64,000 nt of DNA from a virus (Duplodnaviria; Heunggongvirae; Uroviricota; Caudoviricetes), in the IMG/VR virus record IMGVR_UViG_2654587772_000002; one strand, given 5' to 3'. Positions 7,913 through 16,642 of the stretch are shown here, in pieces; position 1 is the stretch's first letter, and every line of letters begins with the position of its first letter. The notes beneath the pieces are model-generated. The model worked only from the letters and a program-made list of their open reading frames with translations, ran no database searches and was not told the DNA's origin. A program made the translations under genes and the position numbers.

Positions 7913-8347
7913 TTATGCTATAGTCGTGTTGATGGCCATAACTGCGGTATATGTTTTTCCCACATACAGCGAGTCTTCCTGAACACAAATAATTGCGATG
8001 GGCTTATTCTCGTTATCCAGAACAACCAGAGTGTTGAATGGATAGTTTTTCCCTTCCTGCAACTGGCTTTGATCAAGGTCCATTCGGACAGTAATTATCC
8101 CGCCAGAGTAGGTTGGGACGAGGTTGATGGTGCAAAATTGACTGGTCAGTTCTGCCAACTCGAAAGTCTTTGGCAGTTCTCCAATGTCATAAGTACCATC
8201 TTCATTTTTGGTAACCAGCGAACTGGTGCCGAAAACGGCCTTGCTGATTAAAAATCGAGAGCCTTTGTTAATGGACGATTCAGCGCGTCGCTGATAGTAA
8301 TAATCCAACAACTGACTCTTATAGAGATTTGTTGAGACGTCAGACAT
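7913..8347 (-). CDS. Hypothetical virion-associated protein
   Basis: 144-aa ORF in co-directional operon immediately upstream of the tail fibre. Confidence 0.4.
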   Translation of the reverse strand: MSDVSTNLYKSQLLDYYYQRRAESSINKGSRFLISKAVFGTSSLVTKNEDGTYDIGELPKTFELAELTSQFCTINLVPTYSGGIITVRMDLDQSQLQEGKNYPFNTLVVLDNENKPIAIICVQEDSLYVGKTYTAVMAINTTIA

Positions 8348-8425
8348 GATTTTCCCTAATCAATGTTGTGAAGCCTCATTGTAAGAGAAGTAACTTGTCA
8401 CCCCGCCCTGCGGACGGGGTAATTG

Positions 8426-9265
8426 TCAGGCATCGCTATCCAGCAGCAAATCATCTGCGCGGGAGCGATCAAACGTAGGCGTTGCTTTCACAATAGTGCC
8501 GCCCGGCGTTGCAGTGATCGGGGCACTAATCGACGTAACTCCGGCAAGCGAAGTTGTATCCGAAGTTTCAAACCAGCAGTACGCTTTTTCGGTATCAGAA
8601 ATCTCGTTCAAAGTGATCATGTCGGCCTGTTCATTTACAACAACCGACAAATAGAGCGTAAGCCCATCAAACACTATATGCAGTGGCAGTAGAGGCTTTA
8701 CGAACTGATTAAACTTTCTGAGAATTTCTTCTGTAATTGCGGACTGATCTATCGTGCCAGTAATACCCATTGTCCTGGCCAGGTCGTTTATGGGAATACT
8801 GATCATCCCTCTGGAAGTCAGAAACATCTCGCCGAATGTGCCGCCAGTAGTCTCCAGTGTGCTTTCTGGTATTAGAACTGTGCCATAGGGATGACGCTCA
8901 AGGTCCACCGGTGCATATATCGGATCCCATAAAACAGAAATACCGTTAAATTCGCGGTAAATTGTCTGGTTTATAGGACGTTCAGTTCCCTTAAAGTGGA
9001 TCTCATCAAGCCGCTGTTGTAACAACATCGGAACGGAAGATGAGTTCGAGGTTCTGATAGTAAAGAACTGGCCAAGTTCATTTGTCCTGGTCTCCAGATC
9101 CTCCTTGCTCATGGAGAAAATAGACTTCCGGTTGGTAATTCGCTCCAACCATGGGTCAACAAAGGTGTCCATCATTGACTGAACCAAATCAGCCAATGAT
9201 TTATAGAGCAATGACTTTTGCTTAGCTGATGTAAGCCGGTTATTAAACCAGGAACGCTGCATCAC
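8426..9265 (-). CDS. Hypothetical virion-associated protein
   Basis: 279-aa ORF; 4-nt start/stop overlap with upstream gene. Confidence 0.4.
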   Translation of the reverse strand: MMQRSWFNNRLTSAKQKSLLYKSLADLVQSMMDTFVDPWLERITNRKSIFSMSKEDLETRTNELGQFFTIRTSNSSSVPMLLQQRLDEIHFKGTERPINQTIYREFNGISVLWDPIYAPVDLERHPYGTVLIPESTLETTGGTFGEMFLTSRGMISIPINDLARTMGITGTIDQSAITEEILRKFNQFVKPLLPLHIVFDGLTLYLSVVVNEQADMITLNEISDTEKAYCWFETSDTTSLAGVTSISAPITATPGGTIVKATPTFDRSRADDLLLDSDA

Positions 9266-10695
9266 TCCTCCTCATACGAAATATTAAAGGTGGAGCTTTC
9301 TGTATCCAGATAAACGAAATCGTAAAAGCCGTTGGACTCATTCCACTCGACAAATTCCAGATAAAAGTCGCGGAAATAACCCAGCGTTTCGATAAACGCC
9401 CAAACGTCTTTTTTCTTAATCAGGATGTACTTTCCGACGCGGTTCGGATCAAAGAAAGTTGAGTCGCGCCCAAATTTTGTTTCCAGTGCCGACTTCAGCT
9501 CATCGGTCACATTCTCAATGGTCAGGCTTGCCGATATCCGTCCGGTGATGGTTATCTTAAATGGTAGTTTTCTGACCTCTTTATAAGAGAATTTCTTGTT
9601 CAGTTCATTCGGTACCTTCTTAAAGGCAGTCAGGATCATTTCTTCAAGCTCTGACTGGCTTTTATTTGGATGCCATCCTGAAATAAATATCTTATTGATA
9701 TTCTGAACATTATAAGCACCATCTAATTTCTCTTGCTGGCCTTCGCCCCATGCCTTTACCCAGGACAGCCCCGGGATGTTACGAACCAGAAAATACGTAT
9801 AGTCCCCGCCCCATACGACCTGATCATCATAGGCAAGGTAATATTGTGCACGGTTACGTGTGATCTCCGTTGTTTCAGCATCGGTACCTGCGGTTATAGG
9901 TGTCGTTGTCTTAACTGAAATCAAATTAGCTAAATCAGCCGCAGAATCGACAGGCGTCAGGTTTTGGCCAGCAACCAGGGTTATATCGCCGTTGGTGCAC
10001 CATACCTTAAGCGTAATTGTCGAACCTTCTGGCGGTATTTGCCCAATTAGCCCATCGCCGAATCGAACCCCCAACTGCTCGGATGGTTTATAAAACTCAA
10101 CGTAGACCTGGCTTTTACTACCGGCTAACCGGAACATAGTGCTGGAAGACCACTGCGTGGTCTTCCCATCGGTTGTCACGAATACTTCCAGCTTATAGCA
10201 GACAGCAGTAAGAGCCTTTGATAACACGACTTCCAGAAATTCTTTGGCTGCCGTAACGGTATATGTCACCTCCTGGATTTCCAACTGTGCCACTTCTACC
10301 GTACCGGTGCCGTCAACCAACCTGCATACATCCATAGTCATGTAAGGGTACTGGTCGTCAGATATTAAAGGCATGTTTTTGGGGATTACCGCTGGGGCAT
10401 CTTCACTTGTGGCGGTGATCTCAATCATCCCCGATGACGGTGTTGGCTTGGTACCAACATAACTGTTCGTTTCTGCCGCAGCCAGGATAGAGGAACGCCG
10501 CGTCGCGGTCGATATAAAGCCTTCAGCCAGCGCCGCATCGGCATACTGAAAGCACCTGTAGACAATCTGGGTAATAAACAATGTCAGCATCGAGACAAAT
10601 TGAGAGCCGACAAACTTCGACCAGAATGAATCTTTCTCGACAAGCTCTTCAAACTCTGCACGAATACTGTCTTTAGTCGGTGTTGTTTTACTCAT
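9262..10695 (-). CDS. Hypothetical virion-associated protein (477 aa)
   Basis: Long clean ORF, 4-nt overlaps with both neighbours (translational coupling). Confidence 0.4.
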   Translation of the reverse strand: MSKTTPTKDSIRAEFEELVEKDSFWSKFVGSQFVSMLTLFITQIVYRCFQYADAALAEGFISTATRRSSILAAAETNSYVGTKPTPSSGMIEITATSEDAPAVIPKNMPLISDDQYPYMTMDVCRLVDGTGTVEVAQLEIQEVTYTVTAAKEFLEVVLSKALTAVCYKLEVFVTTDGKTTQWSSSTMFRLAGSKSQVYVEFYKPSEQLGVRFGDGLIGQIPPEGSTITLKVWCTNGDITLVAGQNLTPVDSAADLANLISVKTTTPITAGTDAETTEITRNRAQYYLAYDDQVVWGGDYTYFLVRNIPGLSWVKAWGEGQQEKLDGAYNVQNINKIFISGWHPNKSQSELEEMILTAFKKVPNELNKKFSYKEVRKLPFKITITGRISASLTIENVTDELKSALETKFGRDSTFFDPNRVGKYILIKKKDVWAFIETLGYFRDFYLEFVEWNESNGFYDFVYLDTESSTFNISYEEE

Positions 10696-11051
10696 AGCAC
10701 CACGTCCTGTGTGATAGTTATATCCCTGATACGAATGGATATTTTCAACTTATCAAAAGCATCTCCCTCGGCTACTGACAAGCCAGAAATCGGTATGTCA
10801 GGTAAATCTACCGTCAGTTTTTGCAACAGCATTGCCTCAACCGCAATTTGAACATGCGACAAGTTGGTCGGTTCGTGTTTAAACTGCGGTAAAACATTGC
10901 CCCATGACGGATCTCCGTATACCTCACCCTGATAAGTGTTTAGCCACTCATATAAACGAGCGCCCCAGGCCTCCTCCTGGGACTCATACGTTTTTACGCC
11001 GGATAACTCCAGCGTCAGCAAAGGATCAATTTCGTTATTGTTGGCCATCAA
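10692..11051 (-). CDS. Hypothetical small virion protein (119 aa); baseplate gp25/GpW-like is a weak possibility
   Basis: Size and loose pattern resemblance only; not confirmed. Confidence 0.35.
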   Translation of the reverse strand: MMANNNEIDPLLTLELSGVKTYESQEEAWGARLYEWLNTYQGEVYGDPSWGNVLPQFKHEPTNLSHVQIAVEAMLLQKLTVDLPDIPISGLSVAEGDAFDKLKISIRIRDITITQDVVL

Positions 11052-15439: not shown

Positions 15440-15453
15440 CCTTGCTCCTTAAT

Positions 15454-16065
15454 TCAAAGAGAAAAGCTAAAGCCCAGAAGGGAAGCCAAAGAACTTGAGG
15501 ATTGGTTAAACGTGCTGTGCAATGCGAAGGTCATTGGGAATGACTTAAATTCCGTAACCTGATCCCGCGCATAGGTGACATCTCCGGTAGTGACCGGGAA
15601 TACCGTCATCTCATTTTCCAGTTTGGTTAAACCGGAGGACAGCAACCGATAAATACGCACATTGAGCAAATATTTAGATGGTATGTTCCCGGTGCCGTCA
15701 GGATTGATCACCCGACTTTTTGCCGTCTTAAACCAGTCCAAAACGAGGCCATCAACGGTATCCCTGACCATCATTGTTATCTGCCCTGGCGAACGCTCCG
15801 TTGGCTGAAGGATATTCCCTCCGCCGATTTTAATCGTTTCATATTCGATGCTGTAATCGTGGTAGGTAATGTCTTTAGCAAAGAAGTCTGCCCCCTCCAG
15901 ACCATCAACTTCGACAGAGAACTGCCATCCTTGCGCGAACAGCATTTTGTTCATGATGATTGACGTCAGCTTACCAACTTCCCGTTCACCAACGCCGGAG
16001 CCAAATAATGTCGTCGTTAATGCCGAAGATACATAAGACTTTACTGAAGCAACATTAAGCCCCAT
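15454..16065 (-). CDS. Hypothetical virion-associated protein (203 aa)
   Basis: Clean ORF in operon; no family recognised. Confidence 0.4.
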   Translation of the reverse strand: MGLNVASVKSYVSSALTTTLFGSGVGEREVGKLTSIIMNKMLFAQGWQFSVEVDGLEGADFFAKDITYHDYSIEYETIKIGGGNILQPTERSPGQITMMVRDTVDGLVLDWFKTAKSRVINPDGTGNIPSKYLLNVRIYRLLSSGLTKLENEMTVFPVTTGDVTYARDQVTEFKSFPMTFALHSTFNQSSSSLASLLGFSFSL

Positions 16066-16075
16066 ATCAGCCCCC

Positions 16076-16642
16076 TCACTTCAACATGGATGAGAAAAGA
16101 ACAATTCCCGGGATAATTGCTCTTGTTGCGCTCATTTTCTCTTCCAGATCCAGCTTTCGCTGATACAGCGTGTTCTCGTCGGATAAATTGCTGGCATCTA
16201 GTTTCCCCGCGATAGATATTCTTCGCAGGCGATCAGTGTTAGGTATCGCGATTAACACTTCCAGATAGTCAGAAAGTAACCCAATTATTTCAGGTGGCAC
16301 TTCCCCATTATCCAGATCCATATCACGCAAATTAGCCAGATATGACACATTCAGTGGGTATACCGCTCGATGAGTATCTTCAAGCTCGATATTCCCATCG
16401 TAAACATCGGAGTAGACAAGATCGCCGGTGTGATCTGTAACCGATACGAGCGCAAGAAAATCAGCTGGACAAGCAAGTGATTTACTGGCCTGATCGGTGA
16501 GGCGTATCCGCTTGATGTGCCCCGCCCTATCCTGGTAGGTTCCCAATGCTTTTCTTAGCAGGGATTCCAGTAAGGCAGGTTCATCCGCAATCAAAGGTGT
16601 GAAGCGGGTTTTGACGTCTTCGAGTAATTGTCGTGGTGTCAT
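16076..16642 (-). CDS. Hypothetical protein (188 aa)
   Basis: Clean ORF, first gene of the unassigned module after the AT-rich insert. Confidence 0.4.

Follow-up and report, generated by a model that had tools for sequence, protein, structure and literature searches.

What are eight closely packed genes for virion-type proteins doing between a lom remnant and a tail fiber gene, next to what looks like the tail cluster of a lambda-type phage? The question is raised by IMG/VR record IMGVR_UViG_2654587772_000002 (Caudoviricetes), of which we analyzed a stretch of 64,000 nucleotides (nt), referred to below as the window; the eight open reading frames (ORFs) lie on the minus strand at positions 7913 to 16642. 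Our answer, to which we assign a probability of about 0.9, is that this block comes from the middle of the late morphogenesis genes of a P1-like (Punavirus) phage-plasmid and that it most likely adjoins lambda-type genes only through scaffold pasting. The eight genes are already known: they form the standard, well-described P1 set pmgC, tub, pmgB, sit, pmgA, bplA, 16, and R, followed by the fiber gene S, in the order given in the P1 annotation (NC_005856). What we observed directly is which genes these are, that they are unbroken, the presence of the promoters, and the disagreement between near-identical assemblies about the join.

The first-pass annotation of the window described eight codirectional, tightly coupled ORFs, and all eight are present at the coordinates and lengths that it gave (Table 1), separated, from pmgC through the fiber gene S, by gaps of 10, 14, 81, -1, -4, -1, 78, and 11 nt. 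It had left them unassigned to any family; each proves to be a named P1 gene. All eight proteins have end-to-end matches to PHROG profiles, under P1-derived names, and none of the genes is broken or contains an internal stop. Searches of Pfam and NCBIfam alone returned almost nothing for six of the eight; the identification came from PHROGs and from DNA similarity. The 8.7-kb block is 95.6% identical at the nucleotide level to positions 37853 to 46576 of P1, with 98% coverage, and matches 25 phage and 510 plasmid records, with identities to P1-like plasmids, such as CP056621.1, of up to 98.5% over the whole block. Global amino acid identity to the P1 proteins is 96.5 to 100% for seven of the proteins, with Sit at 89.8%. 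The two P1 late operons of this region, LPsit and LPs (R-S-U; NC_005856 positions 37853 to 46626), show the same genes, order, spacing, and late promoters. Colinearity extends well beyond the block: window positions 1 to 16713 correspond to P1 positions 29504 to 46647, comprising the end of darA, hdf, lydB, lydA, the fiber region, and the genes from R through pmgC. The P1 share of the window thus amounts to about 29.5 to 46.6 kb of the P1 map plus an accessory region, the rest of the element lying beyond window position 1. The window differs from P1 in the variable part of S and in the replacement of both cin with its invertible C-segment and simABC.

That these are virion-type genes, as was first proposed, is supported by P1 virion proteomics (PMC9024508) and by solved P1 virion structures (9AY5/9VZK, 9UMS), chains of which match five of the eight proteins; none of the matches found in the PDB was a solved chain for Sit, PmgB, or R. 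The fiber gene that follows them, originally taken for a lambda-type side tail fiber (stf), is P1 gene S. For the genes between lom and the fiber gene, no homology or synteny with lambdoid phages was found; the matches to lambdoid phages stop at position 17677.

These data bear directly on the proposal that the eight genes make up an accessory apparatus for fiber anchoring and wall penetration, added downstream of J as a functional graft on a tail of the lambda type. Wedge proteins of the gp25, gp6, and gp7 types need a sheath and a hub, and lambda has neither. The orientation shared with J and the location ahead of a fiber gene are all that speaks for such a graft, whereas every one of the genes is nearly identical to a P1 gene whose product has a defined place in the contractile tail or neck (PMC12810830), the block carries its own predicted Lpa-type late promoters, and no lambdoid phage records with these genes after lom were found. 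In addition, the join to the lambda-type genes is abrupt, lacks homology, and is shared by no other record in the databases searched, and a sister assembly places the join elsewhere (see below). We regard the graft as having a negligible probability. The alternative offered in the first-pass annotation, a remnant of another phage, pointed in the right direction, since the genes are those of a P1-like myovirus, as distinct from the lambdoid prophage.

The lom remnant itself is real (ORF 17602 to 17787, minus strand), but it does not directly adjoin the first ORF of the block, being separated from it by about 960 nt of accessory DNA (16713 to 17676). The remnant encodes a chimera of 61 amino acids (aa): approximately 37 codons from the start of lom, signal peptide included, run without a change of frame into the final 24 codons of a 212-aa P1-plasmid gene. 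P1-like plasmids cease to match at 17677 and lambdoid phages start to match at 17676/17677, leaving an overlap of 1 to 2 nt; at this point, where P1-like plasmids run on into icd/ant, the window switches to lom. We found no homology, insertion sequence (IS) element, lox-type site, or duplication at the join, and no record spanning it in the collections of phages (50,697 records), plasmids (72,556 records), and RefSeq complete genomes of Escherichia coli (5,426 genomes).

The exact Sit protein of the window is found in a single indexed contig, the chromosome of E. coli ST2747 (CP007393.1). Look-ups with the exact proteins of the lom fusion ORF, the J fragment, the broken accessory gene, and S led to no source contig, and Tub, which is present in more than 29,000 blocks, was uninformative with regard to CP007393. 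In BLAST alignments, this chromosome matches window positions 1 to 4932 over 4,933 nt with 99.98% identity, positions 6520 to 15313 over 8,794 nt with 100% identity, and positions 17677 to 25815 over 8,144 nt with 99.83% identity and nine gap openings. Yet it joins the two elements differently: in CP007393, in place of the junction of lom with the accessory region, an uninterrupted lom is followed by the beginning of stf, which runs into pmgB at approximately codon 45. It also lacks 1,587 nt of the window (4933 to 6519, from approximately nucleotide 1398 of S into a 92-aa ORF), with a 5-nt microhomology, GGCAC, at the edges; the missing stretch reflects either a difference in assembly or a deletion that truly distinguishes the sister strains. 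Furthermore, an extra A in an A-run cuts a 296-aa fiber protein to 197 aa in CP007393. The ST2747 genomes represent a parent and two in vitro-selected derivatives sequenced with early PacBio chemistry at about 28-fold coverage, and approximately 14 PacBio scaffolds were ordered into one "gapless chromosome" (Xavier et al., PMC3983296).

On this view, a chromosomal scaffold with its end inside lom would have been followed, in the ordering, by a scaffold of the P1-like plasmid. That assemblies so nearly identical, apparently from one strain family, have their joins at different points fits scaffold concatenation, together with the homopolymer errors, much better than two independent events of illegitimate recombination, and we infer that the adjacency of lambdoid and P1-like DNA is most likely an artifact of this kind. 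The competing explanation is that the junction is real: by illegitimate recombination, a whole P1-like phage-plasmid or a large part of it would have entered lom of a chromosomal Rac-like prophage, leaving a composite prophage region with two tail gene sets side by side, working separately. It can draw on the in-frame fusion of lom to P1-like DNA, on a published record citing CP007393 in which such DNA is treated as chromosomal (PMC6906374), and on P1-like segments in contigs longer than 1 Mb from elsewhere, some of them fused to lambdoid early genes or host genes. An arbitrary join would be in frame in one case out of three, though, and a real junction has to contend with the lack of an IS element, lox-type site, duplication, or homology at the join, with its absence from every other genome in the three collections, with the scaffold concatenation in the assembly method (PMC3983296), and with the different join and intact lom of a near-identical assembly from what appears to be the same strain family. 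We consider a real junction unlikely.

Four points weigh against our interpretation. Only 17.7 kb of the P1-like element falls inside the window; the artifact was called from assembled sequences, which leaves a genuine junction a minor share of the probability; the origin of the window as a sister assembly of ST2747 is suggested by near-identity of the sequences; and contigs as large as chromosomes contain P1-like modules in assemblies from elsewhere, some of them abutting lambdoid or chromosomal genes. Because such segments exist on chromosome-sized contigs, a true integration keeps a small probability here as well. Whichever explanation holds, each of the two tail gene sets is that of a different phage, and the apparent extra module on a lambda tail appears only when two phage elements without relation to each other are read as a single one. 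The practical consequence is a probable chimeric join in a deposited family of "complete" E. coli ST2747 genomes, one of which (CP007393) has already been cited in a paper as bearing chromosomal P1-like DNA (PMC6906374).

In two other E. coli assemblies, CP178336.1 and SQNQ01000132.1, large contigs carry R/S genes of the P1 type directly beside early genes of lambdoid phages (DUF551, DUF4222) or genes of the host (LysR, lacY). There are, therefore, other cases of P1 fragments in chromosomes or of chimeric assemblies.

The functions of the encoded proteins are taken from the literature on P1, where the genes have been mapped, knocked out, seen by proteomics, and mostly solved by cryo-electron microscopy (cryo-EM), which leaves them little value as a discovery. 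All eight genes are essential by CRISPR interference (PMC10695390). PmgC, Tub, Sit, BplA, and R were detected in the P1 virion by proteomics (Gonzales et al. 2022, PMC9024508), and the knockouts in the same study showed that pmgA, pmgB, and pmgC are essential: pmgA and pmgB knockouts have no tails, and in the pmgC knockout heads and tails are not joined. In the cryo-EM model, PmgC is a head-to-tail adaptor present in 12 copies on the portal (PMC12810830). Tub is the hexameric initiator of the tail tube atop the baseplate, the major tube protein being BplB, which is encoded elsewhere in P1; Tub, PmgG, and gp6 together form the stack of tube initiator and hub, and the last two are likewise encoded elsewhere (PMC12810830; bioRxiv 10.1101/2025.07.21.665459).

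The baseplate wedge consists of PmgA (gp25-like), gp16 (gp7-like), and two copies of BplA (gp6-like) (PMC12810830; bioRxiv 10.1101/2025.07.21.665459), and is the P1 version of the conserved wedge heterotetramer of simple myovirus baseplates (Mu, P2, and the inner baseplate of T4). PmgA is baseplate wedge protein 1, with an HHpred match of 99.4% to T4 gp25 (PMC9024508); an initial tentative call of the 119-aa protein as gp25-like was correct, as PmgA is the wedge protein of the gp25 type in the solved P1 baseplates (PMC9024508; PMC12810830). BplA is a baseplate wedge protein similar to T4 gp6 and P2 J, with weaker PDB matches to T4 gp6 chains and Pfam matches to Gp6-like_1st and Baseplate_J. 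Wedge protein 2, gp16, is a T4 gp7-like "lever" and the probable attachment point of the fibers (bioRxiv 10.1101/2025.07.21.665459), on which R is the likely fiber anchor (PMC12810830; bioRxiv 10.1101/2025.07.21.665459). R is small, essential, and associated with the fibers and the baseplate, and is proposed to form a gp8-like dimer that anchors the long fibers on gp16. Two PHROG labels, "head morphogenesis" (PmgB) and "tail tube protein" (gp16), were set aside as outdated or wrong in view of the cryo-EM and knockout papers.

In P1, LPsit drives seven genes (pmgC, tub, pmgB, sit, pmgA, bplA, and 16) and LPs drives R, S, and the fiber assembly gene. Of these, pmgA, bplA, and 16 encode the gp25-, gp6-, and gp7-like proteins from which the six wedges of the baseplate are made and, with the sheath, tube, and hub proteins encoded elsewhere on the P1 genome, the proteins of the block form the contractile tail of a myovirus. 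Functionally, they are unconnected to the adjoining lambda-type siphovirus tail genes, which are part of the separate Rac-like prophage.

The 1142-aa protein Sit is the probable tail tape measure protein and carries a predicted lytic transglycosylase domain. The architecture first described for it is all there: residues 1 to 320 are 35% K/R/D/E, residues 321 to 480 are hydrophobic and rich in Gly and Ala, the SLT domain (PF01464) scores 88.5 bits against a cutoff of 21.3 and contains the ES motif ATESGGD at residues 770 to 776, and an 18-residue repeat is found near the C terminus in two copies (942 to 959 and 1010 to 1027). The resemblance to tape measure proteins that had been noted along with the SLT domain is borne out as well, as Sit has been assigned as the P1 tape measure (PMC9024508; PMC12810830). 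This assignment is based on the helical content and the fit of the roughly 750 N-terminal residues to the P1 tail's length (PMC9024508) and on an unresolved low-resolution density inside the baseplate and the tail lumen (PMC12810830); the place of sit in the gene order, after the tube-type and chaperone genes and before the baseplate genes, fits it. Differences from P1 Sit are concentrated in residues 334 to 710, in the form of small indels and a divergent Gly/Ala-rich central part. The SLT domain is predicted to cut peptidoglycan during penetration. In P1, the wall-degrading domain is thus located on the tape measure, whereas T4 has it on the gp5 spike; P1 gp5 lacks a lysozyme domain (PMC9024508).

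Like Sit, T7 gp16 is a large virion protein with an SLT lytic transglycosylase domain that is used in penetration, which raises the alternative that Sit belongs with such internal core or ejection proteins and is not a tape measure. Residues 750 to 880 of Sit indeed match phrog_342 ("internal virion protein with endolysin domain"), and some database records name Sit an "internal (core) protein" or "protein inside capsid D". That match is confined to the SLT domain, however, as is all similarity between the two proteins; the gene context differs, and T7 gp16 is part of the capsid core, as opposed to the tail lumen. With sit in the standard tape measure position, preceded by a tube-type gene and a chaperone gene and followed by the wedge genes, about 750 helical N-terminal residues that match the tail length (PMC9024508), and the density in the baseplate and tail lumen (PMC12810830), we regard a T7-type core protein as highly improbable and keep the tape measure assignment for Sit. 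The length of Sit differs among P1-like elements that are otherwise nearly identical (1130, 1132, 1134, 1140, 1142, 1145, 1231, and 1246 aa). If Sit is a ruler, tail length may vary among these elements.

The single item in the block that could add to existing knowledge is an alternative-frame extension of pmgB. PmgB, which was not detected in the virion, has been proposed to be a tape measure chaperone from its gene position alone (PMC9024508); we treat it as an essential tail assembly protein absent from the virion and a putative chaperone for assembly of the tape measure or the hub. Reading on in the +1 frame of pmgB gives an ORF that covers the 81-nt gap between pmgB and sit; it reads ...LYGGIPIQDAERLTESYAFFLLEKLEEKLKPKR and has its stop codon at 14488 to 14490, 11 nt before sit; its C-terminal peptide is LTESYAFFLLEK. 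For comparison, we collected PmgB homologs from Cronobacter phage JK004 (73% identity), phage D6 (39%), and genomes of Pantoea (66%), Serratia (41%), and Rosenbergiella (39%), as well as a metagenome-assembled genome of Shewanella (34%); this diverse set came from a scan of genome contigs, as a scan of viral contigs returned only P1 relatives with at least 98% identity. In all seven lineages compared, frame 0 stops 3 to 30 codons past a conserved F-(I/L)-(P/S) motif, with no conservation of the tail beyond it. A peptide of about 50 residues in the +1 frame, ...NLxLYGxxPxxDxExL...EEKxK..KR, is conserved in all seven (34 to 100% PmgB identity), without indels between lineages. Moreover, the most variable alignment columns coincide with frame-0 third codon positions up to some 18 to 24 nt past the start of the motif and with +1-frame third positions from there on; the switch falls at window positions 14633 to 14644, near pmgB codons F266 to Q269.

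This pattern makes it somewhat more probable than the contrary that pmgB is made in two forms through a programmed shift to the +1 frame (+1 or -2) near codons 266 to 269. The short form would be the annotated 293-aa protein, and the long form, of about 317 aa, would be encoded in part by the 81-nt gap before sit. No shared canonical slippery motif was found across the seven lineages around the sequence TT[CT] [AC]T[TC] [CT]CA. A G5 run near the pmgB stop was rejected as the slip site, being absent in the D6-type and Shewanella homologs, whose frame 0 ends earlier. Independent initiation of the +1 ORF was judged unlikely because it has no conserved start codon: in D6 and at the Rosenbergiella locus, there is no standard start codon upstream of its conserved part.

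Tailed phages use -1, -2, or +1 shifts to make two forms of a tail assembly chaperone, with Mu as the -2 case (PMC5009743). As with lambda G/GT (-1), P2 E/E+E', and the Mu gene (-2), pmgB lies directly upstream of the tape measure gene and after a tube-type gene and, like those frameshift chaperone genes, is overlapped by a conserved ORF in a second frame, which stops shortly before the tape measure gene starts. On the other hand, PmgB is much larger than G or E, its candidate shift is to the +1 frame, and no classical slippery motif was found. Should the two-form reading be true, PmgB would be the P1 counterpart of lambda G/GT and of the Mu -2 case, and P1-like and D6-like phage-plasmids would join the phages that recode a second form of a tail chaperone. 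It might even help to explain, speculatively, the poor complementation by the cloned pmgB ORF (PMC9024508), if the clone ended at the annotated stop. A frameshift in pmgB is not mentioned in the literature that was searched, which did not cover Xu et al. (2004, Mol Cell), and the conserved extension may be new to the literature.

Six of the seven PmgB homologs show weak, subthreshold matches to PF12322, the family of T4 gp26 and gp51 (best E = 4e-5), and PmgB of the window scores 16.6 bits, below the cutoff of 24.5. Profile alignment with hhalign is likewise weak, both for gp51 (probability 22%, E = 9e-4, with residues 16 to 99 in register, including a CxxC) and for gp26 (probability 13%). The PF12322-like part corresponds to PmgB residues 15 to 112 (window positions ~15100 to 15400). 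In D6 (NC_050154), the annotated start of the sit homolog (locus position 1531) overlaps the conserved +1-frame extension of pmgB. This start has probably been placed about 100 nt too far upstream, as a GTG near VDRAGKREV aligns better with the N terminus of P1 Sit.

Table 1. Positions of the eight-gene block and its flanking features in the window
Feature	Position	Strand	Evidence
P1-like/Rac-like join at lom codon ~37	17676..17677	.	Plasmid matches end, lambdoid matches begin
Accessory region in place of simABC	16713..17676	-	97.5-97.9% identity to NZ_CP027575.1 and NZ_CP195366.1 up to 17677
LPsit, P1 late promoter (-22 box, -10)	16674..16692	-	19-nt core identical to LPsit of P1 (NC_005856)
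pmgC	16076..16642	-	188 aa; 98.9% aa identity to P1; PDB 9UMS chain "PmgC", E = 1.6e-118
tub	15454..16065	-	203 aa; 99.5% identity to P1 Tub; PDB 9AY5/9VZK chain "Tub"
pmgB	14558..15439	-	293 aa; 98.6% identity to P1 PmgB
+1-frame extension of pmgB, candidate frameshift	14488..14644	-	Comparison across seven lineages
sit	11048..14476	-	1142 aa; 89.8% identity to P1 Sit; full-length match to phrog_2533
SLT domain of Sit (residues 750-869)	11870..12229	-	Pfam PF01464, E = 3.1e-25
pmgA	10692..11048	-	100% identity to P1; PDB 9AY5/9VZK chain "PmgA", E = 1.8e-76
bplA	9262..10695	-	477 aa; 99.4% identity to P1; PDB 9AY5 chain "BplA"
Gene 16	8426..9262	-	98.6% identity to P1 gp16; PDB 9AY5/9VZK chain "Gp16", E = 7e-182
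LPs, P1 late promoter	8378..8396	-	-22 box AAGTTACTT and -10 TACAAT intact
R	7913..8347	-	144 aa; 96.5% identity to P1 R; phrog_2032
S, P1-type long tail fiber gene (outside the eight-gene block)	5001..7901	-	56.6% global identity to P1 S

Two of the ORFs depend on the choice of the start: the pmgA ORF (10692 to 11051) encodes 119 aa, or 118 aa if counted from the ATG at 11048, and the gene 16 ORF (8426 to 9265) encodes 279 aa, or 278 aa from the ATG at 9262. LPs differs from its P1 counterpart by a single substitution, which falls in the spacer.

At the fiber end of the P1-like DNA, the conserved 5' (Sc) part of S belongs to the P1-colinear stretch, and the cin invertase and the invertible C-segment are absent (window positions 2679 to 4713). 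In place of cin there is a fixed fiber set, consisting of S, the 92-aa ORF, the 296-aa fiber protein with a collar domain, and a 205-aa fiber assembly protein, along with a hexapeptide (serine-type) acetyltransferase gene in the opposite orientation. The latter is the ORF at 2679 to 3242, which was considered as a candidate for cin and rejected. The same fiber/acetyltransferase layout is found in P1-like plasmids, such as CP115328.1 (98% identity), which shares the fiber/acetyltransferase/lysis arrangement with the window; NZ_CP027575.1 shares the region that replaces sim. No single P1-like plasmid among those listed matches all three segments of the window.

The accessory region at 16713 to 17676 replaces simABC, as it does in NZ_CP027575.1 and NZ_CP195366.1; assignment of its positions 16713 to 17600 to lom was rejected, as this is P1-plasmid accessory DNA. 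It contains the last 24 codons of the 212-aa gene and a broken gene for a 260-aa protein with a signal peptide (16788 to 17572, minus strand), which is intact in NZ_CP027575.1 and is split here into ORFs of 77, 95, and 57 aa by several indels of 1 to 2 nt, mostly in homopolymers. The broken gene represents either a pseudogene or sequencing errors. Among the P1-like loci compared, the simABC position, between icd/ant and pmgC, is a hypervariable cargo slot that carries, depending on the locus, DUF5384, YfjT, PTP-like, DUF4760, SH3-domain, or unknown genes. The slot may be a hotspot for genes of superinfection exclusion or defense.

The rest of the window (17677 to 64000) is a Rac-like lambdoid prophage, with lom, J, head, lysis, and replication genes, recET, and an integrase gene. 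Its J gene is split (19168 to 19243, minus strand) into ORFs of 721 and 462 aa by the loss of one G from a run of five. In CP007393, J is intact at 1180 aa, and the split is probably a homopolymer sequencing error.

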